A stretch of 64,000 nt of DNA from Formosa sp. PL04 (GCF_033447105.1 NZ_JAWQUN010000002.1:416856-480855), one strand, 5' to 3'; counted from the stretch's first letter, positions 2,986 through 63,379 are shown. Program-made: numbers and translations. The notes: generated by a model not told the origin, from the letters alone.

Positions 2986-4299
2986 ATGAAAAATATAGTT
3001 TCAAAATTATTTAGTATAATGTTAGTAGCCATAACATTATATAGTTGCAGCACAGACGACGAGATTACCGTGTTAAATGCTACAGCAACAACAGACCTAA
3101 TAACATCTGCAGACGACATTGTTCTGCTTAAAGAAAATGAAGAAGCTATTGCTTTAACATTAACTTGGACACAGCCAGATTACGGCTATAGTGCCATAGC
3201 AGATTACAATGTTTATTTTGATGTTGCTGGAAATAACTTCCAAAATGCAATTATAAAAGACGCTGGAAGCAAATTAGAGTACTCTCTTACAACTAAAGAC
3301 TTAAATACCATTCTGCAAACGTTAGAAATTGTACCAAATACAGAAACCGTTTTAGAAGTAAAAATAGAAAGTGTTGTTGGAACAAGTACCATTGCTGCAG
3401 TTTCGAATATTAGTAATTTAACGGTTACTGGTTATGCCAATGTTTTAGATTTAGTATCTGTTTGGGGACTTGTAGGAAGTGCAACTGTTAACGGTTGGGA
3501 TGGTCCTGATATGCCATTTTACAAAACAAACGTTGCTAATATTTTTAACGCTTATGTTACTTTAACTGATGGCGAATTAAAAATTAGAGCAAATAATAGC
3601 TGGGATTTAAATTATGGTGATACTGGTGACGACGGCACTTTAGAAGAAGGTGGCGATAATATTCTTGTTAAGGCTGGAACTTACAAAGTAACCTTTAATG
3701 AAGCGACATTAACTTACAAAATAGAGCCTTACACTTGGGGACTTGTTGGTAGCGCTACTCCTAATGGTTGGGATGGTCCTGATACGCCGTTAACTTACGA
3801 TCCAACTTCAGACCAATGGCGTGCTATTGTACCGCTAACAACTGGAGATATGAAGTTCAGAAAAAATAATGACTGGGCATTCAATTACGGAGACGATGGA
3901 AATGACGGGGCATTAGAAGATAATGGAGCAAACATTCCTGTTACTGCCGGAAATTACCTTGTCACTTTAAACCTAAACGATTTAACCTACACTCTAGAAC
4001 CTATAGAAAAATTATGGGGTATTGTAGGTAGTGCAACTCCTAATGGCTGGGATGGTCCTGATACGGTTATGAATATAGATTACACTATAGAAGGTGTATG
4101 GTATCTATACCAAATTACACTTACAGATGGGGAAATGAAATTTAGAGCCAACAACGATTGGAACATAAATTATGGAGATGATGACAATGATGGTTCCTTA
4201 GAAGATGGAGGGGGAAATATTACTGTTGAAGCAGGAGTTTACGATATTGTATTAGACTTATCAGACACCTCTAACCCAACGTATACTTTAACTAAATAA
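2986..4299 (+). CDS. SusE/SusF-like surface glycan-binding lipoprotein with three tandem ~100-aa repeats
   Basis: Lipoprotein signal (ITLYSCSTDD). Three internal repeats each carrying WGLVGSATxNGWDGPD ... NNxWxxNYGDxxxDGxLExGGxNI. Position is SusC-SusD-X. Confidence 0.7.
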   Translation: MKNIVSKLFSIMLVAITLYSCSTDDEITVLNATATTDLITSADDIVLLKENEEAIALTLTWTQPDYGYSAIADYNVYFDVAGNNFQNAIIKDAGSKLEYSLTTKDLNTILQTLEIVPNTETVLEVKIESVVGTSTIAAVSNISNLTVTGYANVLDLVSVWGLVGSATVNGWDGPDMPFYKTNVANIFNAYVTLTDGELKIRANNSWDLNYGDTGDDGTLEEGGDNILVKAGTYKVTFNEATLTYKIEPYTWGLVGSATPNGWDGPDTPLTYDPTSDQWRAIVPLTTGDMKFRKNNDWAFNYGDDGNDGALEDNGANIPVTAGNYLVTLNLNDLTYTLEPIEKLWGIVGSATPNGWDGPDTVMNIDYTIEGVWYLYQITLTDGEMKFRANNDWNINYGDDDNDGSLEDGGGNITVEAGVYDIVLDLSDTSNPTYTLTK

Positions 4300-4307
4300 C
4301 AATACAT

Positions 4308-4350
4308 ACGGGCTGTGATGTACTACATTACAGCCCGTATTGTTTTTAAT
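4308..4350 (+). terminator. Stem-loop (9-bp stem acgggctgt/acagcccgt) plus T-run downstream of the SusE-like gene
   Basis: Perfect inverted repeat 4308-4316 / 4330-4338, followed by attgtttttaattt. Confidence 0.5.
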
Positions 4351-4359
4351 TTATATCTT

Positions 4360-14166: not shown

Positions 14167-17100
14167 ATGTCTTTAACTGGATTATTTATGGCTTTAAAAA
14201 TAGTAATTACTCACAAAACGAAATACAAGTACGACAGATTAGTATCGTTATCTCCCCACATTTTTAGATTACGTCCTGCACCTCATAGTCGAACTCCAAT
14301 AGAAGCATATTCTATTAAAATCACACCAGAAGAACAATTTTTTAATTGGCAACAGGACCCTTTTGGGAATTATATGGCACGATTAATTTTCCCGGAAAAA
14401 ACGAGAGAATTAACTGTAGAAGTAGAAATTATTGCTGATTTAAAAACCATAAATCCATTTGATTTCTTTGTTGAAGAAAGTGCTGAAGAATTCCCGTTTA
14501 CGTACACAGACACCATAAGAAAAGAGCTTCTACCCTATTTAGAAATTACAGAAAGAGGTCCGCTTTTACTAGATTTCATTCAGACTATTGATATGACTCC
14601 TAGAAAGACCATTTATTTTCTAATTGACATCAATCAGAAAGTTTATGAATATTTAAAATATAACATCCGGATGGATCCGGGTGTACAATCTTGCGAAGAA
14701 ACACTAGATCACAGAACGGGATCTTGTCGTGATTACGCTTGGCTATTTGTACAGGCTTTACGTCATTTAGGATTTGGAGCACGATTTGTTTCAGGATATA
14801 TTGTTCAATTAAAATCTGATGAAAAATCGTTAGATGGTCCTTCTGGCCCTGAAGAAGATTTTACAGATTTACACGCTTGGGCCGAAGTTTATCTTCCTGG
14901 TGCTGGTTGGATTGGTTTCGATGCTACCTCTGGTTTATTGTGTGGTGAAGGGCATATCCCTCTAGCTTGTACGCCTTCTTTTGAAAGTGCAGCTCCAGTA
15001 AGCGGAATGACAGATATTTGTGAAACCACATTTGAATTTGAAAATTCTGTTAAACGTATTTTTGAATCTCCACGTGTAACCAAACCCTATACAGAAGAGC
15101 AATGGAATGCCATATACAAACTTGGTTTTAAAGTTGAAAAAGAATTAGAAAAAGGCGATGTAAGATTAACCATGGGTGGTGAACCTACATTTGTATCTAT
15201 AGACGATATGGAAGGTGAAGAATGGAACACAGCTGCCGATGGTCCTCACAAACGTGAACTTGCAAAAAATTTAGCCGCAAAATTATACGACGAATACGAT
15301 AACGGTAGTGTATTACATCAAGCGCAAGGAAAATGGTATCCAGGAGAACCGTTACCACGCTGGCAAATAGAACTATGTTGGAGAAAAGACGGTAAGAAAA
15401 TATGGCATAATAAGAAATTATTAGCTCTATTTTCAAACAATCCAGTCCTTCCTGAAAATGCTTCAGAATTATTCTTAAAAACGTTAAGCCGGAAATTAGA
15501 CATCACCGACGAATATATCATTCCTGCATACGAAGATGCGTTTTACTTTATGTGGGAAGAAGGAAAATTACCTGTAGATGTAGATCCTACAGTAGATGAC
15601 GGTGCTTTATTAGTTAAAGACAAATTAAAACAAATCCTAAAAGACGGAAAATCTAAAGCCATCGGACATGTGTTACCATTAAATAACACATCAGACACAT
15701 GGCACTCTAACACTTGGAGTTTTAGACGTAATCATTTATTCTTAATTCCAGGAAATTCTCCTATCGGTCTAAGATTACCTTTAGACTCTTTACTTAGAGA
15801 CCCTGAGTTTGGTGATTTCCCGAAGCAAGAACCTGATAATTTTACAAAAAAGAAAAAATTACCGAGTTATAAAAATATTGTTTTAAGACGTTCAAAAAAC
15901 GTTAATGAACATGGCATTTCCGAAGACACAAATAACTATTTTATACGTACAGGTTTATGTGCCGAAGTTAGAGATGGAAAAATGCATTTATTTTTCCCTC
16001 CTTTAGATACTGCAGAAATCTTTTTGGATTTAGTATCTTCTATAGAAGCAACAGCAAAAGAACTTAAGATACCCGTTGTTTTAGAAGGTTACGATGCACC
16101 ACATGACACCCGTTTGGAATCGATGAAAATTACTCCAGACCCAGGTGTAATTGAAGTAAACGTGCAGCCGGCAAAAAACTGGAAAGAACTTACAGACAAC
16201 ACCTTAACCCTATACAGACTAGCTAAAGAGTCGCGTTTGGGTACAGAAAAATTCATGTTAGATGGAAAACACACCGGAACTGGTGGTGGAAACCATGTTA
16301 CTTTGGGAGGTATTACACCTAAAGACAGTCCGTTGTTACGTAAACCAAGTTTATTACGAAGTTTGCTAACCTTTTGGCAACATCATCCAGGACTTTCATA
16401 CTTGTTTTCTGGAGCATTTATTGGAGCCACAAGTCAGGCGCCACGTATAGATGAAGCGCGTATGGAAAACCTATACGAACTTGAAATTGCGTTCAGTCAA
16501 ATTCCGAAAAGTGGAAAAGTGCCCTTTTGGTTAACAGACAGATTATTCCGTCACTTATTAACCGATTTAACAGGAAACACGCACCGTGCAGAATTCTGTA
16601 TCGATAAGTTATACTCACCAGATTCATCTACTGGACGATTAGGTATTTTAGAGCTACGTGCTTTTGATATGCCTCCGCATCCACAAATGAGTTTAATGCA
16701 AAACTTGTTAGTACGAACACTTGTTGCTTGGTTCTGGAAGAAACCTTACGAGCACGATTTAGTACGTTGGGGAACAGAATTACACGATAAATTCTTAACA
16801 GAACATTACGTTAGAGAAGATATAAAAGACATTGTTACGCAACTTAACAAGGCTGGATATAAATTTAAAGAAGACTGGTTTAATCCGTTCTTCGAATTTA
16901 GATTTCCGCTTCATGGAATGGTTGAAATAAATAATATTAATTTAGAATTACGTGCTGCTATCGAACCTTGGAATGTATTAGGTGAAGAAATGACTGGTGG
17001 TGGAACTGCTAGATATGTAGATTCTTCTGTAGAGCGTATTCAAGTTAAAGTAACACATTTTACTGAAGAACGTTATGTTTTAACCTGTAATGGTGTGAAA

Positions 17101-20091: not shown

Positions 20092-20979
20092 ATGGAATTT
20101 AAAGTATCACATACAACCAGTTACGACTACGATAGTGGAGTAACCTTTTGTCATAACATTGCGACTTTAAAGCCCAGAACAATACCCGGGCAAACGATAT
20201 TAGAATATAAACTTGAAATAAGTCCAGAACCTTCAGAAATAACAGAACGTTTAGATTTTTTTGGAAATATAATTACAAGATTTTCCATTCAAGAACATCA
20301 TAAAAAGTTAAAAGTAACTGCAAAAAGTACAATATTAAGAGATTATGCATCTCAACCAGATATTGAAACTTCTAAAATGGGTAAATCTATCTCTTTAGAA
20401 GATTCTTTAAAAATTTTAAAAACGAATAAACTCGATCTCATTGATGTCAATCAATTTAAGTTAGAATCTATATTTATAACTCATATTACTAAAGAAATAA
20501 AGGAATATGCTGAAGCGTCTTTTAAAGCAGACCGTTCTGTTTTTGAAGCGTCTTACGAGTTAATGCAACGTATTTTTACTGAATTTGAATTCGATTCCGA
20601 ATTTAGTACTATTGCGACTCCTATTCAAGAAGTTATGAAAGAGAAAAAGGGTGTGTGTCAGGATTTTGCTCAAATAGCAATTGCATGTGTACGCTCTATA
20701 GGATTACCAGCCCGTTATGTTAGTGGTTATATTGAAACATTACCACCACCCGGGAAAGAAAAATTAGTTGGAACTGATGCGTCTCATGCTTGGTTTTCTG
20801 TTTATATTCCTACTTTTGGTTGGGTAGATTTTGACCCTACAAACAATCATATCCCTAAGAACCAACACATCACTGTATCTTGGGGTAGAGATTATTACGA
20901 TGTACCACCTTTAAAAGGTGTTGTATTTAGTGCAGGAAAAACTAAAATGAAAGTAGCGGTAGATATAAGACCTGCTTAG
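20092..20979 (+). CDS. Transglutaminase-like protein with a Bact_transglu_N domain (295 aa)
   Basis: MEFKVSHTTSYDYDSGVTFCHNIATLKPR. Candidate Cys/His/Asp residues in GVCQDFAQIA, DASHAWFSVYIP and GWVDFDPTN. Confidence 0.75.
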   Translation: MEFKVSHTTSYDYDSGVTFCHNIATLKPRTIPGQTILEYKLEISPEPSEITERLDFFGNIITRFSIQEHHKKLKVTAKSTILRDYASQPDIETSKMGKSISLEDSLKILKTNKLDLIDVNQFKLESIFITHITKEIKEYAEASFKADRSVFEASYELMQRIFTEFEFDSEFSTIATPIQEVMKEKKGVCQDFAQIAIACVRSIGLPARYVSGYIETLPPPGKEKLVGTDASHAWFSVYIPTFGWVDFDPTNNHIPKNQHITVSWGRDYYDVPPLKGVVFSAGKTKMKVAVDIRPA

Positions 20980-21139
20980 GTTTTATACTGTTCAAATAAC
21001 ATACAATATTCTAAAAAGACATACTTTTCTCTGAATTAGTATCTCTATAAACAAAAACTGAATTACAAAACATAATGTTCGTAATTCAGTTTTTTAGGTA
21101 ATATTGAGAAAAAATAAGTAGGCAAGATTTTAATCGAAA

Positions 21140-25687: not shown

Positions 25688-25890
25688 ATACTATTTTATA
25701 TATCACAAATAAATACTCTATCACTATAGCATATATACATTATAAAATACAATTTATTTAATAGCCATTACAAAAATAGCTTTTGATTATAAAAAACAAT
25801 TAATATCGAAAGTAGTCAAATGAGGTTACTTAACTAAAGAAAATCATGAAAGTTTATAGAATGAGGAAACACCACTATTGAAACTAAACT

Positions 25891-25925
25891 AAAAAAGCCA
25901 ACTATAAATAGTCGGCTTTCTCTTA
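25891..25925. repeat. Copy A of a palindromic terminator-hairpin repeat (aaaaaagccaactataaatagtcggctttctctta). It acts as the 3' terminator of the 1625-aa gene.
   Basis: Identical, including the A-for-G stem variant, to 35937-35971. Related to 63341-63376. Confidence 0.7.
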
Positions 25926-25984
25926 TTTTAAGGTAAATTTTCACTTCTTAAAAACTAAAATAAAAAAAAATAATTGAGAGAAAA

Positions 25985-28900
25985 TTATTTTCTTAAACCA
26001 TTTTGTAGCACATCTTTAATACCTTCTAAGTTTTCGGTAAATTGCATCATTTGCACAAGTAATTGCGCCATTTCATTCTTACCTCCAAAACCTTTAAGCT
26101 TATTATTCTTTTGAAAGGTTTCTCGAATAGACTCCCATCTTATTTGTTCATTTTCAGAAAGATCTCCGATAAGCTCCTTGTATTTTAATAGATTTGCTTC
26201 AGCAGAAGACGTCAACGTTTGTGATTCACTTTCATAATGAGAAAGCACTAAGGTCTTCAATTCTTTATCGTTCATTACAGGAACAACTTTTGCCACTAAT
26301 TTATTCATGTCACGATAAGACCCCTGTAATTTAAACGATGGTTCTACTCTATACTCATCCTCCATAGCAGCGCTTTTAATATATGTTTCGTTAACTTTAA
26401 GCACGGTGTTCCTAATCTGAATAACTTTTTCTAAAACCGACACATATTCTTGAATCTCTTGATTTGTATAATTACCTGTTAATTGGGCTTCTTGATTATC
26501 ATTTTCAATACGATCTAATAATCTATACACATCATCAAAGTTCTTACTTCCTAATTGCTGTAACACCGGATTAGATGTTAATGAATTTTCTATAAGACTC
26601 AGCCTAAACAAATGCGCTGTATCCCCAATAATATCTCCCAGATTATAAATATCTGCTCTATTGGCTAACATATCTGGAATTCTAAATTTATCGCCACTTT
26701 CTGTGTATGGATTTCCTGCCATGACTACACAAAACTTCTTTCCACGTAAATCGTAAGTTCTAGATTTACCGTTATAAACACCTTCTACTTTCCTAGTACC
26801 GTCTGATAATGAAATAAATTTTTGCAAAAATTCAGGATTACAATGCTGAATATCGTCAAGATATAACATCACATTATTTCCCATTTCAAAAGCTAAGTTT
26901 AACTTTTTCAACTCTTCTCTGGCAGCAGAATTTGTAGCCGAAGAAGGATCTACAGAAGTAACATCATGACCAATAGCTGGGCCATTTATTTTCATAAAAA
27001 TTAGACCTAACCTATTCGCTAAATATTCCATCAAGGTTGTTTTACCATATCCCGGAGGAGAAATAAGGAGTAATAACCCCATTCTATCGGTTCTTTTTAA
27101 ATCTCCAACTGTACCTAATTGTTTTGCTAGGTTATCTCCAAAAAGCGGAAAATAAACTTGATCTATTAATTTATTTCTAACAAATGAACTTAATATTCTA
27201 GGCTTAAATTCTTCTAATTTTAAATCTTCTTTTAACTGAATAGTAACATCATGTTTTGCTTTTCTAAAAGCATTAAAAGCAGGCACTTTTTCCTTGAAGT
27301 AATATTCGTGTAAAATAACAAAATCGTGAAAATTAAAACTATAAACACCATCTTTAATCGTGTTATGCTCACCTCTTAAACCTTCTATTTTTTCTGAAGG
27401 CGATGTGAATTTTGTATTTAAAACCGCTTCATCTTCAAATAAAATTAAACACACAACTTCATTTACATACTTCAATTTTAACTGGAGATCTTCAGTATTA
27501 TCACTCGCTAAAAAGGCTTTCACCCACTGACTAATTAATGCTACTTTAGCTTCGTTTGCTTCTAACTTATCTAAGCTCTTTTTAAATTTTATATCTGCTT
27601 TTTGATCTTTAAGAGTGTTTAAAAAAGCCTCTTTAATTTGTATTGCTATACCACTTTTCTGAAAATCATTATCGATTTGAAGTTCTTCAAAAAGATATTC
27701 TGCAGCGTCCTTTGCTAAAGTCGTTTCATAAATCCCTGTCTGAATTCCAAATTCAAAAATTGACTCTTCTAATTTCTTTACAATAAACGCATATTCTCTA
27801 GCGGCAGGAAAAAACTGTACAACTTCTCCAGATGCTTTTATAGTTTCATTTAGATATTGCTGATGCTCTTTACTCGTGAAATTCCAAAAATACTGAGCAC
27901 AAGCTCTAATCTCGGCATGATATCTTAATAAATCTAACGTTCTATATTTCTGAATAAGTGTCGATAATATTTTAGCTGCATCCTGATCATGAACACCTTT
28001 AACATAGCCTTCGGAATAGTCTTTACTACTCTCATCCTGAACCAATTTTAATAACGCTTCTTCGGTATATTCTAATATTTTATCTTGATGCTTTTTGAAG
28101 ATTTTATAAGCCAAATATCCTCCACGATAGACCATTTTGTTTTCTGAAACATAATCCTGGTTCCAAAATTCTTCTGATTTTAAAAGTATTTCATTTTCAA
28201 TTTTTTGATAAAAATCGGAACCCGTAAGATGATATTTTAAACTCCCATCTGTATAAACTATTGTTAAATCTAATTCTTGATTATTAACTCCAAACTTATG
28301 CTTACCTAAACGAATAACATTATCGCCATCTTCGTATAATTCCTTTTTATCCTTAAGTTTTCTTATAGCATCTTCTTTAGCAGATTTTAGTAATGACTGA
28401 ATTTCTTCGGCCTTACCACTATCATCCATATCCTGAAGTTGCTTAGAAATGTCCCTAGCCTTATTTACTAAAATATCTGATGCAAAATACCCATGAATAT
28501 CTGAAGATTCAGAAAATGATTCTGCCTTTTTACGTACACCTTTTAAAATACGCTCTGCTGAATTCTGTAGCATTAGAGCACGTTTATTACGCTTTTCTAC
28601 AAGACTATTTTTACGCGCCTGAAAAGCATTATAAACCTCTTCTCTTTTTTCTATAATTAAACCAATAAACGTTTCATAATCGGCAAACTTCCCTTCAAGT
28701 TCTTCTAATTGAATGGATATTTTAGTTTGAAAATCATCACATTTTTCAGGCAAATCTGCAATATCAAGATAATTAATAATACTCTGATCTATTAATTTTA
28801 ATTGTGCTGCAAACTCGGCCTGTGCTTCTTCACTCCCTAAAGCTTTTCTATTTTTTCTAATTTCTGCTTTTAACTGGTTTATGGTAGCAAAAATTAATGA

Positions 28901-30862
28901 GATATTATTAATAATACGTGTGGAGTGAGACGTATCTTCGATTTCTAAATTTGAAACGATTTCTATAAGTAGCTCTAAGTCTTTAGAAATTTTATTTACT
29001 TGCTCTTCTAAATCCTTTGCCTCAATAACCTTATTAACCTTAGTTAAAGCTTGCTCTTTTTCCTTAATAGCATCTTCGTAAGGCTTCAAAGCTTTATCGT
29101 CCAACAAAAAATGCGCACAACGTTCAGAAATTCGAGTTGTTTGTTCTGCAATATTCTCCTCTAACCTCGTTATAAAACCTTCATCTACGTAACGAATTTC
29201 TTTTAAACCAATAGCTTCACCACGCAAAGCTCTTAACTGGGTTAAATAGCTTACAAAATCATTAATACTTCTAAAACTTGTACTCTTAATTTTATTAAAA
29301 ACCTGATTGGCTTTAACTTCTATTTCGTTAATCTTATCGCCTGCGTTTTTCTTTAATTGTATAACCTTCTGAAATTCATCGATTGCTGCATTGGCGGCTT
29401 GGTTAATCTCCTTTAAAGGTTCATTTAATTTTTGTGTTTCATCTTCAGTTAACCAATAATAAGAATCTAATATATCTTTAGAACGTTTTGCTAGGTCTAC
29501 ATATAAACCATCATAATTATCTTCTTTATTTAAAAGATTTATAAGTCCATGAACTTCAGCCATAGCTTTTACAATATCCTTATTCCCGATTTTATATAAC
29601 AAACTGTCTTGATGTGCAGATGGAATAAAATCATCTTTTAAGTAAGGGGTTTGCCAAATCTGAATTACATGGTGTCTGGTTTGTTCGTTTTCATTCCTAA
29701 AATAACATAACTCACCATCTTTTAAAATTGTAAATCCATTACATATAATAGGAGTTTGTATTTCTTGAGAAATGACATTATAACTCATTAAATTATAAAG
29801 CCCTTGTTTGGCAGAATAAAAGACATAAAGGTAATCTTCTCCATTAGGAGAAGCTATTTTCTCTTGAAACTTTACATTTGGAATACTATTATCGAATATA
29901 TAATATTCTCCCGTTTGCAAATAATACCCTGTTGAAAAAATTACTCCATGATTTTCTGGAAGTAAAACACAGGCTTCTTTTATACTTTCAATTTTCTGAA
30001 TTTCTTTAAGTTTATGGTTATAAACAAAGTATCGAGAACTTTCTTGAAAGGGTTTTATATCTAAAATAATCAGGTTTCCTAAATTAGCAAATCTATACTG
30101 ACCATCGTCTAAAGTTTGATCGCGGTGTTCTACTTCTTCAGAATAAATACCTTTTCCATCGTCTGTATTATCTTCAATTTTAATAGTTAAATCACCTTCA
30201 ATAGTTTCTACAAAAACACGATCTAGAATAGACACATGAGCGTGCACACCTCGACGATGCATATCTCTAGTTACTTCCTGCCAATTAAATTCATGTTGTA
30301 ATGGTAATTTATATTCGTGATCACTTCTATCGCCCTCATACTGAAGTTTATCATCTTTTATTAACCATTTAAAGGCTTTAATATCTGTAACACTTTCACT
30401 TAATTGAAAAATCATGTAAAGATAATTTCCTATTACAGCGAACTTAGAAAATATAGTATTACGATAATATTTATAAAGATTAGTGAAATCTGATTGAAAA
30501 ACGGAATCATCAAGTAAATCTAAAGCAACAGATTCAAAACTATTATTTTTAAATCTATAAAGGCTCATAACATCATTTAAAGCAATTTCTGTTCTTAACC
30601 CAAAATGCACATTATAACCAAATAGACATGTATCACCAAGAGAAACTATATCTCTAGCAATACAGTTATTTTCAGTATTAATACGATCGCTAGTGATTAG
30701 TTTAGTTTCTAAAGAGCCAAAAACATCTTTTCTACCATCGTTTAATTTTTTAAGACGTTGTTGTAATTCAGTTTTTTGTTTTTGAAGTCGGTTTTGAATA
30801 ACCTCATAAGTGCCAACATCTAGTTTTTGATTATGTTCTTCCTTTATAGGTTCCTTTTTCAT
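25985..30862 (-). CDS. Giant (1625 aa) coiled-coil-rich protein with a C-terminal MoxR/AAA_5-like AAA+ ATPase domain
   Basis: About 1250 aa of largely alpha-helical, Glu/Lys-rich sequence. Then Walker A ISPPGYGKTT, Walker B VMLYLDDIQ, sensor VVMAGNP and an Arg-finger-like IPDMLANRADI. Last gene of the operon. Confidence 0.7.
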   Translation of the reverse strand: MKKEPIKEEHNQKLDVGTYEVIQNRLQKQKTELQQRLKKLNDGRKDVFGSLETKLITSDRINTENNCIARDIVSLGDTCLFGYNVHFGLRTEIALNDVMSLYRFKNNSFESVALDLLDDSVFQSDFTNLYKYYRNTIFSKFAVIGNYLYMIFQLSESVTDIKAFKWLIKDDKLQYEGDRSDHEYKLPLQHEFNWQEVTRDMHRRGVHAHVSILDRVFVETIEGDLTIKIEDNTDDGKGIYSEEVEHRDQTLDDGQYRFANLGNLIILDIKPFQESSRYFVYNHKLKEIQKIESIKEACVLLPENHGVIFSTGYYLQTGEYYIFDNSIPNVKFQEKIASPNGEDYLYVFYSAKQGLYNLMSYNVISQEIQTPIICNGFTILKDGELCYFRNENEQTRHHVIQIWQTPYLKDDFIPSAHQDSLLYKIGNKDIVKAMAEVHGLINLLNKEDNYDGLYVDLAKRSKDILDSYYWLTEDETQKLNEPLKEINQAANAAIDEFQKVIQLKKNAGDKINEIEVKANQVFNKIKSTSFRSINDFVSYLTQLRALRGEAIGLKEIRYVDEGFITRLEENIAEQTTRISERCAHFLLDDKALKPYEDAIKEKEQALTKVNKVIEAKDLEEQVNKISKDLELLIEIVSNLEIEDTSHSTRIINNISLIFATINQLKAEIRKNRKALGSEEAQAEFAAQLKLIDQSIINYLDIADLPEKCDDFQTKISIQLEELEGKFADYETFIGLIIEKREEVYNAFQARKNSLVEKRNKRALMLQNSAERILKGVRKKAESFSESSDIHGYFASDILVNKARDISKQLQDMDDSGKAEEIQSLLKSAKEDAIRKLKDKKELYEDGDNVIRLGKHKFGVNNQELDLTIVYTDGSLKYHLTGSDFYQKIENEILLKSEEFWNQDYVSENKMVYRGGYLAYKIFKKHQDKILEYTEEALLKLVQDESSKDYSEGYVKGVHDQDAAKILSTLIQKYRTLDLLRYHAEIRACAQYFWNFTSKEHQQYLNETIKASGEVVQFFPAAREYAFIVKKLEESIFEFGIQTGIYETTLAKDAAEYLFEELQIDNDFQKSGIAIQIKEAFLNTLKDQKADIKFKKSLDKLEANEAKVALISQWVKAFLASDNTEDLQLKLKYVNEVVCLILFEDEAVLNTKFTSPSEKIEGLRGEHNTIKDGVYSFNFHDFVILHEYYFKEKVPAFNAFRKAKHDVTIQLKEDLKLEEFKPRILSSFVRNKLIDQVYFPLFGDNLAKQLGTVGDLKRTDRMGLLLLISPPGYGKTTLMEYLANRLGLIFMKINGPAIGHDVTSVDPSSATNSAAREELKKLNLAFEMGNNVMLYLDDIQHCNPEFLQKFISLSDGTRKVEGVYNGKSRTYDLRGKKFCVVMAGNPYTESGDKFRIPDMLANRADIYNLGDIIGDTAHLFRLSLIENSLTSNPVLQQLGSKNFDDVYRLLDRIENDNQEAQLTGNYTNQEIQEYVSVLEKVIQIRNTVLKVNETYIKSAAMEDEYRVEPSFKLQGSYRDMNKLVAKVVPVMNDKELKTLVLSHYESESQTLTSSAEANLLKYKELIGDLSENEQIRWESIRETFQKNNKLKGFGGKNEMAQLLVQMMQFTENLEGIKDVLQNGLRK

Positions 30863-30913
30863 TATATCCTATCCTGAATTTTAAATTAAAATTATAAATA
30901 AACTAACCTTATA

Positions 30914-30948
30914 AAAAACAGAGCCGACTAATATAGCCGGTCTGTTTT
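30914..30948 (-). terminator. Imperfect hairpin plus T-run between the flotillin gene and the giant gene (possible partial terminator or attenuator)
   Basis: aacagagccgacta-ata-tagccggtctgtt. The minus strand reads the hairpin followed by TTTTTT. The gccgacta core resembles the A/B/C repeat hairpin. Confidence 0.4.
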
Positions 30949-30961
30949 CAATGAATTAATT

Positions 30962-33040
30962 CTAGTTTTTCAACTTTGAAATGTCACTATTAGAAATCCC
31001 TAACCCTTTTGCCAGGTTTAATAAATTCCCTAACATAGTATGCTCTTCTTTATCGTTAGATTTCTTTTTCAAATCACTAATTAAGCTAGCAATACTCACG
31101 TTTTTAAGATCTTCTGTAGACACATTATATTTCTCCGCAAAATCTTTAACCTTTTCTAGCAAATTTCCTTTAACATCATCACTACCTAAAATTGCCGTTT
31201 TAACTTCCTGGATATTATTAGAATTCTGCACTAATCTATCGAAACCTTTACCTCTAGTAATTTGCCCAATAATTTGATCGAAGAACATCGTTTCTCCACC
31301 AACAATATCGATTTTAGCAGCTTTTAAAGCATCGCTAATAACTTGTGCTTGTGCATCTGCAATATCTTTTTGAATATTGATATGTGCAAGATCGACTTGA
31401 AGATCCTTATTAAGACGCAGTTTAAACTCTTCGTGCTCTTTACCTACACCATCAAGTTTTTTCATTGCTGCTGCTTTCTCTTCTATTCCAGAAGCATCTG
31501 CGATTGCTTTTTCTTTAATAACATCGGCTTCAGCTAATCCTTCTTTACGTTTCGCATCGGCTCTTACTTCTATTCCTACTGCTTCTGCTCTTGCTTTTTT
31601 CTCAATAATATTAGCTTCGACTAAACCTTGACGCTCATTAGCATCTGCTTTAGCATGCATAACTTGAGCTTCAGACAGACCTACTGTAGCCTCTTCTTTT
31701 GCTTGTGCTTCTGCTAATATTTTACGAGCCTCAGCTTGCTTCACACTAGCTTCTTTATGGGCCATAGCTTCAATATTAATTTCTTCAGCTTTTTGTTTAG
31801 CAGCTTGTTTCTGAGCTTCTGCTGCTTTTGTTGTTTTAATTAATGCTTCTTCGGCATTTGCTTCTGCTATAGTAATTTTAACTTGCTTATCTCTATCTGC
31901 AGTTTTAAAAGCCTGAATATCTTTCATATTCTCTTGCTCTTCTACCACACCTTTCTCAAGCATTACACGATCACGAATTACATCTTGAATGTTTTTCTTT
32001 TCTACTTCTACTACTTTTTCTTTTTCAATCTGAGCCAGTGTCACTACTCGTTCTCTCTCGGTAGCTTCTAATAATCTATCTTTTTCTACTCTTTCAGTTT
32101 CTACTGCATGTGTTCGCTCCTTATTTTTAAGCGCTACAATTATTTGACGTTGCATATTTTCTTCAGCAACTTTAACTTTTTCTTCTGTAGCTATTCTTGC
32201 ACTTTCAGATTTTAAGCGCTCTTCTTCATTTACTTTAAGAATTTCAGCACCTTCTCTAGCTACAATATTGGCAATTTCACGCTTTTGTCGCTCTTCTTTT
32301 TCTGCTAACTGTTTATCCAACTCTAAAATAGCCTCTCTAGCTTCAACATCTTGTTTTCTTATTGTTTTTTCCTCATCTCTTTTAATAAGGTTTGCCTTCA
32401 TATTTTGAACAGCAGTAAGCTCTGTAATTTTCTTGATTCCTTCCGCATCTAAGATGTTGTCTGGTTTCAATTCTTTAACCGATGTTTGTTCAAGGAAGTC
32501 AATCGCACAATCTTCTAAAGTATACCCATTAAGATCTGTTCCTATAATATTTACAATCTCGTCACGAAACTCTCTTCTGGCTTCATATAGCTCTATAAAA
32601 TCAAATTTCTTCCCAACAGTTTTAAGGGCTTCAGAAAATTTTGCTTCAAAAAGATCTTCTAAAGTTTCTATTTTAGAAGCTCTATCAACCCCAATAGTTT
32701 GGGCTACTTTTTTAATATATTCAACATCATTATTTACACGTACAAAAAAGGCTACTTTAATATCTGCACGCATATTATCTTTACAGATAAGACCTTCATG
32801 AGCAATTCTTTCAATCTGAATTTTCTTTACAGAAATATCCATAATTTCTGTTTTATGAAACACTGGCACAGTATACAACCCTTTATCTGTTGCTACTTTT
32901 GTTCCCCCAAACCCTGTTCTAATTAGAGCCTGACCTTGTGGTATTTTTTTATAAAACATCGCGATTATCGCGAAATAAACAATGATTAGGAATAGTAAAA
33001 GACCTATTCCAATTCCAATGATTGGTAAAATTGATTCCAT
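30962..33040 (-). CDS. Flotillin/SPFH (band-7) family protein, YqiK/FloT-like, with an extended EA-rich coiled-coil C-terminus (692 aa)
   Basis: N-terminal TM helix. SPFH region (IRTGFGGTKV..VPVFHKTEIMDISVKKI). Long Ala/Glu/Lys repeats. Confidence 0.85.
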   Translation of the reverse strand: MESILPIIGIGIGLLLFLIIVYFAIIAMFYKKIPQGQALIRTGFGGTKVATDKGLYTVPVFHKTEIMDISVKKIQIERIAHEGLICKDNMRADIKVAFFVRVNNDVEYIKKVAQTIGVDRASKIETLEDLFEAKFSEALKTVGKKFDFIELYEARREFRDEIVNIIGTDLNGYTLEDCAIDFLEQTSVKELKPDNILDAEGIKKITELTAVQNMKANLIKRDEEKTIRKQDVEAREAILELDKQLAEKEERQKREIANIVAREGAEILKVNEEERLKSESARIATEEKVKVAEENMQRQIIVALKNKERTHAVETERVEKDRLLEATERERVVTLAQIEKEKVVEVEKKNIQDVIRDRVMLEKGVVEEQENMKDIQAFKTADRDKQVKITIAEANAEEALIKTTKAAEAQKQAAKQKAEEINIEAMAHKEASVKQAEARKILAEAQAKEEATVGLSEAQVMHAKADANERQGLVEANIIEKKARAEAVGIEVRADAKRKEGLAEADVIKEKAIADASGIEEKAAAMKKLDGVGKEHEEFKLRLNKDLQVDLAHINIQKDIADAQAQVISDALKAAKIDIVGGETMFFDQIIGQITRGKGFDRLVQNSNNIQEVKTAILGSDDVKGNLLEKVKDFAEKYNVSTEDLKNVSIASLISDLKKKSNDKEEHTMLGNLLNLAKGLGISNSDISKLKN

Positions 33041-33056
33041 TTTTTAGTTAGATTAA

Positions 33057-33761
33057 TTATTCGTTATAAGATTGTACTAAATAGTAATTATGATCGGCAG
33101 ATCTTTTTATAATAAGGATATTAGAGCCATATGTTAATGATTCTCCTGTTAATGATTTAACATAAATAGACATTGTATCTCCATTAACTCTCACCTCTGC
33201 ATTTCCCATTTTATCTTGAGATATAGAAGATAGTAATGTTGCTTTTCTTCCTAAATAATCAATTGGAGCATCTCCATCTTTATTTAAATTCTTGAAGAAA
33301 CTTTTAAACGGACTAGTTAAAACCTTGGTCAGGATTAGAGCAGGAAACAGAGCCAAAAGCATGATTCCAAATCCAATATAATTATCATATGTATAGGTTG
33401 AGGCTGTAATTATTGTAGTTAAAAACCACCAAACAAAAACCCAAAATGTAAACGTGAACATAAACGGCAGTCCTACAAAATTAAAATAGATTAAAAATAT
33501 CTGCCACCATTTTAAAGGAGAACGTTTTTTTCCTACAACATCTTCTTGGTTAATTTCTGTGTTTGAAAGATCTTCAAAATCCATATTACCGCCTTCTAAA
33601 CTAGTATCTACATCTACGTCGGCATCAATATCTATATCAAAATCAGGGTCAAAATCTAAGCCCCCAATCATGGTAACGATCCAGTACAAGATAAGTATGA
33701 TCAGTAAAGTGCTAAGCACCACATTAACTTCAGAAAAAAGTATGTTAGTCAGTTCTGTCAA
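33057..33761 (-). CDS. NfeD/YqiJ-like membrane protein (TM segments plus a C-terminal OB-fold)
   Basis: Acidic DxD-rich N-terminal region, 3-4 TM helices, and a C-terminal beta-rich AEVRVNGDTMSIYVKSL. Sits 16 nt upstream of the flotillin gene, as in the nfeD-flotillin operon pattern. Confidence 0.65.
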   Translation of the reverse strand: MTELTNILFSEVNVVLSTLLIILILYWIVTMIGGLDFDPDFDIDIDADVDVDTSLEGGNMDFEDLSNTEINQEDVVGKKRSPLKWWQIFLIYFNFVGLPFMFTFTFWVFVWWFLTTIITASTYTYDNYIGFGIMLLALFPALILTKVLTSPFKSFFKNLNKDGDAPIDYLGRKATLLSSISQDKMGNAEVRVNGDTMSIYVKSLTGESLTYGSNILIIKRSADHNYYLVQSYNE

Positions 33762-33764
33762 GGT

Positions 33765-34511
33765 TTATTCGTTTTTAATGGTTTTCATTCCCAACTGTTC
33801 CTTAAGTTTTTCAAGGTCATTATCTGCTTTTACTTTTGTAACATCTGCGGCTTTATCAATTTCTTCATCTATAGATTTAGAGGCGTTAGCGATATCTCCA
33901 TAAGCTTCTGCCAGCGCTTCTTCTTGAGCTACTTTTTCCTTCATGCGCTCCAACATAGAGACCGTTCCAGTACTATCCAGTTCTGCCATTTGTTTATTGA
34001 GATTTTTTGTTGCGTTGCTAACTTTAACTCGTGCTTTCAACGTTTTTAATTCATTTTCCCAATTACTAATATTAGCTTTAATAGTTTGAATATTTTTTTT
34101 CATCAGAGCAACATTATTATCGAATGTTTCAGATTCTTCGTTCGCTCTTAATACCTGTTGCTCTGCAGCATCTTTTTGCACCAAAGCTTCTGTTGCTAAT
34201 CGATCTGCTTCAATAGGGTCTAATGCCTTAGATTGTCCTTTTTTCAAGATAATTATCGCTTTATTCTGATACTCATCTACTTTGTTCTGAAATTCTTCTT
34301 TTTCATTTGTTGCGCGTATTGCTAAAGCTTTAACTTGTGCTAAAGCTTCTAGACTTTTTTCTAGATCCAATTTCATGTCCCGAATACCTTGTTCAGTCAT
34401 TTTTATGGGATCTTCCATTTTATTTATTGCAGAATTTGTTTCCGCCTCTCCTATTTTAAATAATCGTCTAAAGATGTTCATAGTGTATGTTTTAATATTT
34501 TGAAAATTCAA
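33765..34511 (-). CDS. PspA/IM30 (Vipp1/LiaH) family protein
   Basis: MNIFRRLFKIGEAETNSAINKMEDPIKMTEQGIRDMKLDLEKSLEAL is a canonical PspA N-terminus. Coiled-coil throughout. Confidence 0.85.
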   Translation of the reverse strand: MNFQNIKTYTMNIFRRLFKIGEAETNSAINKMEDPIKMTEQGIRDMKLDLEKSLEALAQVKALAIRATNEKEEFQNKVDEYQNKAIIILKKGQSKALDPIEADRLATEALVQKDAAEQQVLRANEESETFDNNVALMKKNIQTIKANISNWENELKTLKARVKVSNATKNLNKQMAELDSTGTVSMLERMKEKVAQEEALAEAYGDIANASKSIDEEIDKAADVTKVKADNDLEKLKEQLGMKTIKNE

Positions 34512-34887
34512 TGATTTTATCTGAGTATTCGCTCATTAATAGACTTAATGAATTTAAAGATCCTTCCAATTCATTTAAATCCATATTTTCTACTTGTAAA
34601 GTGTCTCGGTAAATTACTTTTTCTCCAGAGTCGTCCAAAACAAAAGCACCATGAACAATATCTCTGTTCTTTTGTAAGAGGCTTTTAAAAATTTTCTCTG
34701 ATTGATTGTTTATCTTAAAAATAAATTGCTCCATAATTAATATTGGAGGAGCAACTCCGATAATGAGATTTCTAATTCCAGAATTTTCTTTTTGAATTAC
34801 CATAAGACCATCGTCTAGATTTTCTCTGGTGATATTAAAATTTAATTCCAGTAAAAAATCTCTCGTAATATTGAAATGATTTTTCAT
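34492..34887 (-). CDS. Small cytoplasmic protein, possibly YjfI/DUF2170-like, encoded immediately upstream of the PspA gene with a 20-nt overlap
   Basis: 131 aa. Synteny resembles E. coli yjfI-yjfJ (DUF2170 then PspA-like). The assignment rests on size and context only. Confidence 0.35.
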   Translation of the reverse strand: MKNHFNITRDFLLELNFNITRENLDDGLMVIQKENSGIRNLIIGVAPPILIMEQFIFKINNQSEKIFKSLLQKNRDIVHGAFVLDDSGEKVIYRDTLQVENMDLNELEGSLNSLSLLMSEYSDKIIEFSKY

Positions 34888-35152
34888 AGGTAATTTGGGT
34901 TAGCGTTAAAGTTATAGAGTTTAATATTACAAAAAACAATTAAGATTTTATTAAAGAATCTTGATTAGCTCACTGACAATACTTATAATTATAATGACCA
35001 TAAAGTTATGTTTTAATTGATTAATAAATGTTTTAAAAAGACCCTTCGAACGGTTTTAAACTAAAAACATTAGCATTTAAGTATTCTTTTTGCTAATATT
35101 GTTAGACTAAGTTAATGAAATATTTTAATTATGCAAATAAAATTAGCAACAA

Positions 35153-35908
35153 ATGTCGTTATTCGGAAAAAATATAAGAAAAATAAGAAGCATCAAATCA
35201 CTTAGTCAACAGGCATTTGCGGATATATTTGAGCTTAAACGCGGGACTTTAGGTGCTTATGAAGAAGGCAGAAGTGAACCTAAAATTGAGACCATTATTA
35301 AAATTGCTAATTATTTTAGCATTACTATTGACGCCATCTTAACAAAGGAACTCACCGTTAATGAACTTTTAAAATTTAACGGGGATTTAGAAAGCAATCA
35401 TAATATAGAAAAAAATGAATTCCCTAAAATTCCCTGCATCACACCTAAGGATCAAGATAGCTACATTAAACATTCGGAGAACTCAAACTATATAAAAGAT
35501 TTACACCATTTAAGTTTACCTGTAGAGCAAAACAAAAAGTTGAGAGCATTTATTGTAGATAATTTAGAAATGAGTTCTGACAACAGCGGACTTTTCCCTA
35601 AAGATATTGTTATTGGCGAATGGATTCCTAAATCAGATTTTGATACTTTGGAAAATCCTAGCATATGTATATTATTAACGTCTAAGGATATTGTTTTAAA
35701 AAGAATACACCCAAGTAAAAATAAATTCACTTTAAGAGCAGATCATTCTGGAATTGAAGAATATACCATTAATCACTCTGAGGTAAACGAGCTTTGGGAA
35801 ATTAGATATGTATTTAATTATAGAGTACCAGAACTTAAAAACAACCAAATCTTAAATAAATTAGCATATTTAGAACATGAATTCAAAAAATTAAAATCAT
35901 CACTTTAA
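35153..35908 (+). CDS. CI/LexA-like transcriptional repressor: XRE-family HTH plus a C-terminal S24-peptidase-like fold, possibly degenerate
   Basis: N-terminal HTH (IRSIKSLSQQAFADIFELKRGTLGAYEEGRSEPKIETIIKIANYF). The C-terminus aligns by eye to the S24 fold: VDNLEMSS for GDSM, IVLKRI for VKRL. Divergent from the PspA operon across a 265-bp intergenic region. Confidence 0.6.
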   Translation: MSLFGKNIRKIRSIKSLSQQAFADIFELKRGTLGAYEEGRSEPKIETIIKIANYFSITIDAILTKELTVNELLKFNGDLESNHNIEKNEFPKIPCITPKDQDSYIKHSENSNYIKDLHHLSLPVEQNKKLRAFIVDNLEMSSDNSGLFPKDIVIGEWIPKSDFDTLENPSICILLTSKDIVLKRIHPSKNKFTLRADHSGIEEYTINHSEVNELWEIRYVFNYRVPELKNNQILNKLAYLEHEFKKLKSSL

Positions 35909-35936
35909 ATATCTTTTTAAAGTGATGATTTTAAAC

Positions 35937-36026
35937 AAAAAAAGCCAACTATAAATAGTCGGCTTTCTCTTACTGTGCGGGCGGGGAGACTCGAACTCCC
36001 ACACCGCGAGGCACTAGATACTAAGT
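35937..36026 (-). repeat. Copy B: terminator hairpin plus the 3' ~51 nt of tRNA-Leu(TAG), a truncated att-type direct repeat of 63341-63430
   Basis: Matches the tRNA-Leu region with 3 mismatches. Lacks the D-arm and the 5' acceptor stem. Confidence 0.8.
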
Positions 36027-36185
36027 TCTTAAAAATTGCATATCAAAAAATAGCAAAAAACACTAAAAGCCACTTTTTCAGTCGTTTAATATTTTTACAC
36101 TAACATATAACGTTATATGGCAGTATAAAAAGTGTTACCCATGTGTTACCCCTTTTTTATTACCTTTAAGTAAACACTGAAAATT

Positions 36186-36930
36186 ATGGCTACCTTAAAA
36201 ACAGTTTACATAGCAAAAAAGATACTAAGGGAGAAATCATTTATCGATTAGCTTTACGACTTAATGTAAATTAAAAACGCAGTTACTATCACCTAGGCCA
36301 AAATATTGAACCTAACCATTGGGATGATCATGCCCAAAAAGTAAAAAGCAAACATTCGAAACACAAACAAATCAATAGACTAATTCGAAAAAAATATGAT
36401 GAAGTAGAAGACATTCTTTTCAACCTGGAATCGTCAAAACAAAAATATACAGCTAAAATGGTTATTGATTCTATTAGAAATAATAAAAGGACTCAATCCT
36501 TTTTTGATTTAGCAGAAGAGCATATAGAGGATCTAATAGGGCTAACAATTATAATCGCGCTATTTCAGACAACAGTAAGATTAATAGAATAAAAGAATTT
36601 TCAAATGGCAAGGATTTTACTTTTGAAGATATTGATGAATCCCTTCTGAAAAAAATGAAAATTTACTTACCAACGACCTCAAAACTTTCAGAACGTTCAA
36701 TAATGAATCTTTTTGTATTAATTCGATTACTGTATAATAATAATGCCATTCGTAAGAAAATAGTTGATCAAAAATTTTATCCCTTTGGTAGAGATAAAAT
36801 AAGAATAAAGTCTCGACAAATGCTTCAAAAACTATATAGACATACTAATCTTAGTACAACAATAGGTTACCAAGGCAATTTCACCCATAAAAACACAGAT
36901 GATGCATTGGATTTAATTACGTCTTTTTAA
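36186..36930 (+). pseudogene. Decayed Bacteroidota-type tyrosine integrase (N-terminal arm/SAM-like part, broken by stops and frameshifts, catalytic domain missing)
   Basis: ATG 36186 gives MATLKTVYIAKKILREKSFID*. Further frames read ..IEPNHWDDHAQKVKSKHSKHKQINRLIRKKYDEVEDILFNLESSKQKYTAKMVIDSIRNNK.., typical of CTnDOT/IntN-like integrase N-termini. Adjacent to the partial tRNA repeat. Confidence 0.55.
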
Positions 36931-62112: not shown

Positions 62113-62448
62113 GTTTTCTAATAAATCGAAAAAGAAAGAAGCTTACTCAACTGCCTTTTTTTCGTGATGCAAGCATATATTAGTAGAATCTTAAAAACAT
62201 ATAAATAATTATTACGATGAAATATATAGCGACAATCATACTTTTTTTCCATAATTCAAATATAATTATTACGGACTCTTAAAAACAGTACCTTTAAAGG
62301 TAGATATTCCATTTTTGTATGTCCACATTTCATACAGGTAAAATCGTCTTGCCATTTTATTTTTACTAAATAGGCTTAACAAGCATCGTCATTAGGTAAT
62401 TCTTTTATAAAGATCGGGATGCTTGGCGTAGTATTCTTGTCATAAAAA

Positions 62449-62715
62449 TTATTTAGTAGCTCCTGTTTTACGAAGTTCCTTGTCAAAATAAGGAAAGTAC
62501 TTTTCTAACGTAATTAATTGCTCTGATTTTGTGTTCTGATCGGATTTAAACAGCCTATTTAACTCCTCAAACGTCATGGCAGACACATCGTAATTGGTAA
62601 GCTGATACCGCCTAAAAAAAGCAATATACTTGGTTATTGTATTGAGAGATAACCCGAGAATTAGACTGATTTTTCGCATATCTATTTGTGTATTGGCCAC
62701 GATCTTTTTTAACAA
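62449..62715 (-). pseudogene. Short HTH-domain ORF, probably the N-terminal fragment of an IS (IS21-like?) transposase
   Basis: DMRKISLILGLSLNTITKY looks like an HTH. Only 88 aa. Adjacent to three ~24-bp tandem repeats. Confidence 0.3.
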
Positions 62716-62757
62716 AAAAAGACCTTTATGACCTTACAAATAGAACCGATCTTTAGT

Positions 62758-62829
62758 GGTTCACTTTCATCCGCTGAAGGTGGTTCACTTTGACCCGCTC
62801 AACTATGCTCACTTTAATCCGCCGTGGGT
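62758..62829. repeat. Three tandem ~24-bp direct repeats (GGTTCACTTTCATCCGCTGAAGGT / GGTTCACTTTGACCCGCTCAACTA / TGCTCACTTTAATCCGCCGTGGGT)
   Basis: Seen directly. Reminiscent of multi-repeat transposase-binding ends or iterons. Confidence 0.7.
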
Positions 62830-63376: not shown

Positions 63377-63379
63377 CTG

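Follow-up and report, generated by a model that had tools for sequence, protein, structure and literature searches.

The 64,000-nt stretch of the Formosa sp. PL04 genome analyzed here (the window) carries a six-gene module, five packed genes on the minus strand (34887-25985) and a divergent helix-turn-helix (HTH) gene (35153-35908), which is placed between two copies of a 41-nt hairpin repeat. The module has already been described by comparative genomics, gene for gene and with an exemplar from the same family, and it is not a new kind of system. We consider it fairly probable that it represents the described CesT/Tir-PspA-YqiJ/YuaF-flotillin-AAA+ branch of the phage shock protein (PSP) envelope-stress systems, controlled by a divergent XRE-HTH repressor and acting as a membrane-repair machine that includes an ATP-driven remodeller. 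What is new here is the assignment of its ATPase to the MoxR class by structure comparison, a conserved candidate operator, and boundaries at tRNA-Leu and tmRNA genes that resemble attachment (att) sites. The value of the analysis lies in confirmation, a cleaner classification of the ATPase, a testable operator, and evidence that the module can travel as an att-bounded cassette.

The published description is that of Ravi et al. 2024 (mSystems 9:e00847-23, PMC11237479), who reported from Dokdonia donghaensis DSW-1 (exemplar ANH61663.1) a layout of a divergent cHTH+protease gene, CesT/Tir, PspA, YqiJ/YuaF, Band-7/flotillin, and a beta-propeller/coiled-coil/AAA+ protein. The same authors also noted shortened operons (YqiJ-like, flotillin, giant) and likened the PspA-AAA+ pairing to ESCRT-III assembly and disassembly, and links among PspA, band-7/FloT, NfeD, and an HTH regulator were reported by Popp et al. 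2022. A preliminary description of the window had held the giant AAA+ partner to be an undescribed component; this does not survive the comparison, as the whole layout including the giant is found in Ravi et al. 2024. Relatives of the module were collected in one strict scan of species-representative genomes with exact 8-mer seeds, which gave 79 loci (cited below by their L numbers), nearly all from Flavobacteriaceae, plus Echinicola and Owenweeksia. All five operon genes and the divergent HTH gene are present in about 70 of the 79 (tBLASTn and clustering of open reading frames, ORFs), and the six genes form one conserved unit of operon, divergent regulator, and operator-like half-sites.

Gene content and layout

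The features of the locus, in window coordinates, are listed below.

34887-34492, minus: CesT/Tir-like (YjfI-like) chaperone or adaptor, operon gene 1, 131 aa; Pfam CesT_Tir_1 (PF22550), E 7.3e-56, full length
34511-33765, minus: PspA/IM30 (ESCRT-III superfamily) protein, 248 aa; Pfam PspA_IM30, E 2.1e-38
33761-33057, minus: small membrane protein in the YqiJ/YuaF position (short NfeD-like), 234 aa; named from its position and the annotation of the Dokdonia orthologue
33040-30962, minus: long flotillin, 692 aa; Pfam Band_7, E 6.2e-15
30940-30924, minus: hairpin followed by a T-run in the 99-nt flotillin-giant gap; predicted terminator-like site
30862-25985, minus: giant AAA+ protein, 1625 aa; DUF3686, DUF7902, AAA/AAA_5
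35153-35908, plus: divergent XRE-type HTH regulator, 251 aa; Pfam HTH_19 and HTH_3
35069-35148, no strand: candidate operator, three 7-nt half-sites in conserved intergenic blocks, with putative binding
25885-25925, minus: boundary repeat copy 1, operon terminator, 60 nt past the giant stop codon
35932-35972, minus: boundary repeat copy 2, original tRNA-Leu terminator, 24 nt beyond the regulator stop codon
35975-36026, minus: tRNA-Leu 3' fragment, 52 nt, part of a 90-nt direct repeat
63341-63461, minus: intact tRNA-Leu (63379-63461) with hairpin copy 3 (63343-63376); ARAGORN, copy 3 with a perfect stem

The ORFs of the five packed genes and of the divergent HTH gene lie where the preliminary description had placed them, and its gaps of 3, 16, and 99 nt inside the operon and 265 nt to the divergent regulator are correct, as is its hairpin in the 99-nt gap (30940-30924), which may be a partial terminator or attenuator. 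The 20-nt overlap that it gave for the CesT and PspA genes hinges on a TTG start for PspA; with an alternative ATG ten codons downstream, a 10-nt gap replaces it. From the sequence, the ATG is probably the true start, because the Pfam match and the homologues begin there.

The CesT and PspA genes abut and are co-directional, which is the "dyad" of Ravi et al. The CesT-like protein is 66-96% identical across the loci. PspA matches PspA_IM30 with 132.6 bits against a cut-off of 33.9, residues 12-239 covering profile positions 1-217 of 220 (PF04012); since its scores with the NCBIfam PspA and LiaH models fall below their cut-offs, it is, judged by these profiles, a divergent member of the PspA family. 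In the 234-aa protein, an acidic N-terminal part is followed by transmembrane helices and, at the C-terminus, by a beta domain; the protein is kept in 76 loci with invariant motifs in the transmembrane region and at the C-terminus. No match to it was found in Pfam, NCBIfam, or PDB, and it is 60% identical to the Dokdonia orthologue annotated "YqiJ-YuaF" by Ravi et al. The flotillin is built from an N-terminal membrane anchor, an SPFH/Band-7 domain (Band_7, residues 31-195, 56.1 bits, cut-off 23.6), a long helical region rich in Ala, Glu, and Lys, and a C-terminal tail; its N-terminus is hydrophobic. With identities of 75-94% across the loci it is the most conserved of the large proteins, and an exact-sequence look-up of it returned no record. 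The gene content and the membrane-scaffold reading given earlier for this operon hold.

The giant AAA+ protein

The giant has Pfam domains DUF3686 (residues 32-469, E 3.5e-177), DUF7902 (590-673), and AAA/AAA_5 (1264-1387). Together with the model, these give the order N-terminal helix, beta-rich propeller-like domain (DUF3686), long rods of helical or spectrin-like type (DUF7902 among them), a helical domain that is well folded, the MoxR-like AAA+ module, and a helical tail. The protein was modelled by AlphaFold2 in two pieces with a 46-sequence alignment, giving a predicted local distance difference test score (pLDDT) of 78 for residues 840-1625 and of 64 for residues 1-860. The N-terminal model shows one long helix, a beta-rich part at about 69-390, and long helices at 421-843, and its fold matches, mainly beta-propellers and spectrin repeats, are weak (E > 4e-3). 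This model fits the "beta-propeller + coiled coil" label of the published description and does not fit an all-helical protein. Of the structure anticipated in the preliminary description, a giant alpha-helical protein ending in a MoxR/AAA_5-type ATPase, the long helices and the AAA+ fold of MoxR/AAA_5 type are thus reproduced by the prediction, whereas the N-terminus is not all-helical, with residues ~69-390 being beta-rich and propeller-like.

The ATPase domain is of AAA_5 type by sequence profile, and its nearest fold neighbours in structure comparison are MoxR proteins. In the model, a beta-hairpin separates the Walker B strand from that of sensor 1; such a pre-sensor-1 beta-hairpin is missing from classical Vps4-type AAA proteins. 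Because of this hairpin the giant, as modelled, is not a classical Vps4-type AAA, and neither the fold nor the MIT domain of the Vps4 clade is found in it. The Walker A (GYGKTT), Walker B (LYLDD), AGNP, and NRAD motifs are invariant in the alignment, and the predicted ATPase is probably active because these AAA+ motifs are invariant. The family is large, with more than 4121 proteins at E <= 1e-10; the N-terminal 700 residues match 924 clusters at 50% identity, and full-length relatives are typically ~1600-2000 residues long with identities down to 27%.

In Pfam and NCBI, the family of the giant is named "DUF3686: ATPase involved in DNA repair" or "DNA repair ATPase", without evidence, and the Formosa sp. 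PL04 protein that is 100% identical to the giant carries the second of these names at NCBI. This looks like an unsupported propagated annotation, the gene context being wholly membrane-related. We give next to no credence to the reading that the giant is a DNA-repair ATPase whose placement in this operon is incidental: what speaks for it are the inherited NCBI and Pfam names and the presence of RuvB among the generic AAA+ fold matches. A literature search for DUF3686 returned nothing, and the literature searched contained no experimental study of the giant.

Regulator and candidate operator

The regulator adjoins the operon in about 70 of the 79 loci with identities of 41-69%, which bears out the earlier inclusion of the divergent HTH gene in the unit. 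An XRE-type HTH spans residues 4-66 (Pfam HTH_19 3.6e-11, HTH_3 1.7e-09), with matches that include RstR-family and control proteins. It is followed by a conserved C-terminal domain of ~120 residues that is weakly LexA/S24-like: in hhalign with a 25-sequence profile, residues 133-209 align with residues 111-182 of Escherichia coli LexA with only 53% probability (E 1.3e-4), and the comparison with UmuD was negative. No Pfam match to an S24 domain appears in the regulator even at E <= 10. Ser141 and Lys183 align with LexA Ser119 and Lys156; these positions are not conserved family-wide, the Lys position being mostly Arg. Autocleavage is unlikely, on sequence grounds, as a general mechanism of this family, because the Ser and Lys positions vary across it. 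The earlier label of an S24/CI-like repressor is kept for its XRE HTH part, and its S24 part rests on position, on the published annotation, and on the weak hhalign match to LexA. The Dokdonia orthologue is annotated "cHTH+Protease" by Ravi et al. 2024 (PMC11237479).

A 7-nt half-site, ATTAGCA or TGCTAAT, occurs three times in the divergent intergenic region, as ATTAGCA at 35069, TGCTAAT at 35091, and ATTAGCA at 35142. The copies at 35069 and 35091 are perfectly inverted relative to each other, with a spacer of 15 nt, and the third lies 4 nt before the regulator ATG. When 70 intergenic regions from a wide range of genera are compared, conservation is at least 80% in the blocks TTTTGCTAATTTTATTTGCAA, CTAACAATATTAGC, and TGCTAAT, and we propose the ATTAGCA/TGCTAAT sites as a candidate operator of the regulator.

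Two further sequence elements were observed around these genes. A 21-nt AT-rich motif, ATTAYAAAAAACAATTAAKAT, is present at 25739-25759, 25786-25806, and 34926-34946, ahead of the AraC gene as well as of the operon and ~40-120 nt from the start codons, its operon copy overlapping TTTTTGTAnTATT, a conserved block; it probably represents a promoter element common to Bacteroidota rather than a site of the regulator. A 19-bp perfect palindrome (35891-35934) overlaps the regulator stop codon just ahead of hairpin copy 2 and is probably the regulator gene's own bidirectional terminator.

Distribution and synteny

Orthologues in the Dokdonia loci (L008, L022, L079) are 56-87% identical to the window proteins, the giant being 71-72% identical. 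Five loci are shortened to the small membrane protein, flotillin, and giant only (L037, L041, L050, L068, and L077; four Polaribacter and one Hyunsoonleella). The flanks are conserved within Leeuwenhoekiella, Aquimarina, Dokdonia, and Polaribacter/Tenacibaculum and differ between genera; the neighbours of the module are metabolic genes.

We also noticed that small selfish genes have repeatedly invaded the flotillin-giant gap in other genera. They encode GIY-YIG nucleases (Pfam E 5.5e-19) and, with E 2e-5, a transposase of Y1/IS200-like type, and are seen for example at L046:9526-9837 and L009:9149-9739, with equivalents in L017, L022, L023, L029, L032, L037, L050, L060, L069, and L076. Immediately downstream of the giant in L036, L048, L058, L061, and L073, a DUF4178 protein (Pfam E 8e-14) opens a conserved five-gene block, the first gene of which was scanned. 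As DUF4178 belongs to a second, polyamine-linked PspA operon group (Ravi et al. 2024, PMC11237479), operons of two PSP-associated types seem to be neighbours in some genera. Near-identical giants and the same flanking gene families were found in L018 (a metagenome-assembled genome labelled "Mesonia sp.") and L020 (Salegentibacter sp. R32), which bear different genus labels, and one of the two labels may be wrong.

Boundary repeats and the neighbouring island

The repeat that brackets the module is 41 nt long with one mismatch and 35 nt identical (25885-25925 and 35932-35972), and dinucleotide shuffles give an expectation of zero such matches. A third copy of the hairpin (63343-63376) lies directly 3' of an intact tRNA-Leu (63379-63461, minus). 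On the minus strand, all three copies read as a stem followed by a U-run with folding energies of -17 to -22 kcal/mol (z -4.5 to -7.6; copy 1, -17.1 kcal/mol, z -5.3). The hairpin is by these features the predicted intrinsic terminator of tRNA-Leu, and copy 1 doubles as the operon terminator. The preliminary description had reported an identical 35-bp hairpin repeat, which stands for the 35 identical nucleotides and has to be widened to a 41-nt repeat with one mismatch, a third copy, and an origin as a tRNA-Leu terminator.

Copy 2 is adjoined by a 52-nt 3' fragment of tRNA-Leu, in accordance with the att-type tRNA-Leu repeat noted earlier beside the module, and both belong to a 90-nt direct repeat (35937-36026 and 63341-63430, 2 mismatches). 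This fragment is the remnant of the insertion of a 27-kb island (36027-63340) into the tRNA gene, and the intact tRNA-Leu at 63379-63461 is the other island end and marks the ancestral neighbour of the module. In Tamlana L049 and Bizionia L003 the regulator gene has tRNA-Leu as its immediate neighbour, and in these two genomes and Formosa PL04 an M20 peptidase is encoded upstream of the tRNA. Because copies 1 and 2 share a G-to-A stem change that is absent from copy 3, the layout prior to the island is tRNA-Leu, hairpin, regulator, operon, hairpin. The island cargo is a beta-glucan or cellobiose-type polysaccharide utilization locus with SusC/SusD, GH94, two GH3, GH1, a major facilitator superfamily transporter, FG-GAP/ASPIC, an AraC regulator, gluconate kinase/6-phosphogluconate dehydrogenase, and GntP genes. 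Its conjugative traces are a TraN (DUF4138) fragment (62790-63083) and frame-shifted remnants (~62380-62720) only, and no integrase is present in it. Just within the island ends, tandem 9-nt motifs occur in the same orientation, GTGTTACCC twice on the left (36132-36151) and TGTTGTACC twice on the right (63315-63334), which may be recombinase arm sites. A near-identical TACAACATAGGTACAACAA adjoins a truncated tRNA-Leu in Thermobacterium salinum (L016, ~4569-4590), and a homologue of the window ORF at 36655-36930 is also found in that locus.

Mobility of the module

Repeats at RNA genes also bound the module in other genomes. In Tamlana agarivorans, tRNA-Leu adjoins the regulator, and the last 15 nt of the tRNA together with its terminator recur 10 nt past the giant stop codon (30 nt exact, ~62 nt extended). 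In Salinimicrobium gaetbulicola (L011), the module follows the tmRNA gene (Rfam, 128.6 bits), the 3' end of which recurs with a hairpin 155 nt downstream of the tmRNA and again 18 nt past the giant stop codon (51 nt, 92% identity), and a further degenerate copy of this 3' end lies another 6 kb on. Nothing as strong turned up at control offsets of 1.5-7.5 kb. In all three genomes, the giant stop codon is 10-60 nt and the regulator stop codon at most about 320 nt away from the repeats, which, being that close to the outer stop codons, leave no room for another gene inside. Movement is also suggested by Thermobacterium, where a truncated tRNA-Leu adjoins the regulator gene beside an island end resembling that of the window. 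In the neighbour-joining tree of the giant, Christiangramia groups with Formosa, Tamlana, and Bizionia, and Echinicola (Cytophagales) with Zunongwangia, placements that we take to conflict with the species relationships.

Within Formosa the module appears to be patchy. The AraC-TonB flank is syntenic in F. agariphila (76-84% nucleotide identity), the closest Formosa relative with such a flank, where a fucose cluster occupies the place of the module, and this species is not in the list of giant homologues at >=66% identity; F. agariphila thus appears to lack the module. The earlier idea of a mobile or accessory cassette gains support from the RNA-gene repeats in Tamlana and Salinimicrobium, from the discordant tree, and from F. 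agariphila. The empty locus that had been expected in relatives did not turn up in simple form: from the AraC side no collapsed empty site was recovered, AraC and the TonB receptor being a conserved pair with an upstream neighbour that varies per genome (a fucose cluster, Fic with an ISL3 transposase, or APP1/DAGK), which makes this side a variable synteny breakpoint. A search for the empty tRNA-Leu site in other Formosa genomes by means of a 146-residue N-terminal fragment of the M20 peptidase beyond tRNA-Leu found metagenomic fragments only.

Three points weigh against mobility. No integrase or excisionase is encoded between the module repeats among the six scanned products, the GC content of the module is not anomalous, and in most loci boundary repeats are absent and synteny within the genus is stable. 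The missing integrase, the normal GC content, and the stable synteny also favour the reading that the boundary repeats say nothing about mobility, with the module as an old chromosomal operon beside RNA genes whose terminator hairpins were duplicated or homogenized locally. So does the adjacency to tRNA-Leu, which ancestral synteny predicts and which Formosa PL04 has in common with Tamlana, Bizionia, and Thermobacterium. Moreover, the window boundary repeat spans the terminator only and has no tRNA bases. We nevertheless find this reading doubtful, as the distal repeat of Tamlana contains the last 15 nt of the tRNA, the Salinimicrobium repeat contains the tmRNA 3' end in four tandem copies, a classic signature of site-specific integration, the distance between the repeats and the outermost stop codons is within 10-60 nt in each of three unrelated contexts, the controls give nothing comparable, and the giant tree is discordant. 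In our reading the module is inherited mostly vertically within genera, has occasionally been transferred as an att-bounded cassette that lacks its own integrase, and in this lineage now sits at a tRNA-Leu integration hot spot.

Some further repeats and candidates were recorded. At the ssrA gene of L011, four tmRNA 3'-end copies or remnants (3862-4466, 14923-14972, ~20955-20985) delimit tandem att-bounded segments, with the module among them. A 40-nt direct repeat of 95% identity (3363-3402, 15097-15136) brackets the module of Aquimarina sp. RZ0 (L030), and no RNA gene was detected beside it by Rfam or ARAGORN. The 15-nt repeat at tRNA-Met in Gillisia (L013) was not counted, being within the noise of the offset controls. 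The F84/F83 pair that flanks the module in three loci was considered as an integrase and rejected, since it consists of an AlaDh/PNT-like dehydrogenase and an ORF that by eye looks endonuclease/exonuclease/phosphatase-like.

Proposed function

In the envelope-stress reading, the flotillin and its small partner would assemble into an SPFH cage or microdomain at the inner membrane, on its cytoplasmic side, by homology with FloT/YuaF, YqiK/YqiJ, and QmcA/YbbJ. PspA, held by the CesT-like chaperone, would polymerize on damaged membrane at the flotillin platform, as the homology with PspA/Vipp1 and YjfI-YjfJ suggests. The giant may dock by means of the propeller and the rod, and its AAA+ ring of MoxR type would spend ATP to assemble, reshape, or recycle the PspA/flotillin lattice; this step is drawn from domain architecture only, and the proposed remodelling role would be a functional analogy to Vps4 on ESCRT-III or to FtsH in HflK/C, not Vps4 homology. 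The repressor would bind the ATTAGCA/TGCTAAT sites and let go on an envelope signal.

Several observations weigh against this reading. Every mechanistic step past gene content and fold is inference. The half-sites adjoin the regulator's own start and are ~140 nt from the likely operon promoter, so they might serve autoregulation only. By sequence profile, nothing of NfeD (PF01957) is seen in the 234-aa protein even at E <= 10, nor is an OB signature, and the NfeD label given to it earlier rests on its position and on the published annotation of its orthologue. The N-terminal model of the giant is of low confidence (pLDDT 64) with non-significant fold matches. MoxR ATPases normally act with a VWA-domain partner, and none is encoded among the six module proteins or their immediate neighbours.

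The last point bears on a different use of the same proteins, in which the giant serves other clients as a quality-control or complex-maturation chaperone for membrane proteins in the flotillin microdomain and PspA patches the membrane nearby. The MoxR-class fold is in its favour, as the relatives NorQ and CbbQ serve in the maturation or activation of particular enzyme complexes, and so are the recurrence of SPFH cages enclosing AAA+ machines (FtsH in HflK/C) and the shortened operons of Polaribacter and Hyunsoonleella, which lack PspA or CesT. We consider it unlikely, given that no candidate client or VWA adaptor is encoded in or beside the module and that the giant is strictly linked to the PspA dyad in most genomes.

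The preliminary description had also offered phage defence or abortive infection at the membrane. In such a reading, a CI-like repressor would silence a toxic remodelling effector until infection. The att-like repeats at tRNA/tmRNA hot spots, the position beside a degraded conjugative-element island, the phage-repressor-like HTH type of the regulator, the patchy presence within Formosa, and the historical induction of PspA by a phage secretin would all fit such a role. PADLOC-DB 2.0, however, gives no model for the five operon proteins apart from a marginal mad8 P-loop match to the giant (E 3e-4), and its matches for the regulator are generic HTH; no relative was found in IMG/VR viral contigs (exact 8-mer seeds, which reach close relatives only), and the literature search gave no link of this gene set to defence. 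The position is stable within several genera, the flanks in Leeuwenhoekiella, Aquimarina, Dokdonia, Polaribacter, and Tenacibaculum being conserved and free of defence genes, and the conservation of the proteins is unusually high (flotillin 75-94%), which is not the pattern of defence genes with their fast turnover. A defence role is, in our judgement, improbable.

A broader proposal joins the mobility and the envelope-stress readings, the module being an integrase-less, att-bounded passenger among marine Bacteroidota that piggy-backs on tRNA/tmRNA-specific integrative elements, and the MoxR-like giant being the missing ATP-driven assembly/disassembly factor for the PspA polymer on the flotillin platform. 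That both parts hold together strikes us as quite unlikely.

Comparison with known systems

The gene content, order, and orientation of the window are identical to those of the Dokdonia exemplar of Ravi et al., with no architectural difference, and among the features of their operon group, the CesT/PspA dyad, a membrane-anchored Band-7 coiled-coil flotillin, and a giant beta-propeller/coiled-coil/AAA+ protein are found in the window.

Cis-mobilisable elements are integrase-less, att-bounded, and arranged in tandem with integrative elements (Streptococcus thermophilus ICESt1/ICESt3). Like these, the module is bounded by repeats (at a tRNA/tmRNA 3' region), has no recombinase, and lies in tandem with an island that shares its att. 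Unlike in their setting, the co-resident island of the window is degraded, with a TraN fragment and no integrase.

Pairings like those of the module, of PspA with a CesT/DUF2170 partner and of flotillin with a short NfeD/YqiJ partner, are found in E. coli yjfI-yjfJ and yqiJ-yqiK and in Bacillus subtilis yuaF-floT(yuaG) and pspA-ydjGHI. There they occupy separate loci without a giant AAA+ protein, whereas the window has a single operon with a dedicated repressor, and the module couples PspA to a flotillin/SPFH scaffold in one transcription unit. Scholz et al. 2021 showed that an SPFH protein of B. subtilis links PspA to the membrane.

The MoxR-class ATPases NorQ, CbbQ, and RavA are ~250-500 residues long and come with a VWA partner; the giant of the window has ~1250 extra residues (propeller, rods, helical domain), and no VWA gene accompanies it. 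In the ESCRT-III/Vps4 systems of archaea and eukaryotes, a polymer of the ESCRT-III superfamily is likewise encoded beside an AAA+ ATPase gene. The stated view of the field is that a dedicated ATPase of the Vps4 kind is missing for the PspA/ESCRT-III polymers of bacteria, and among genomic candidates for an ATP-driven partner of PspA polymers the PspA-flotillin-giant operon family is the clearest.

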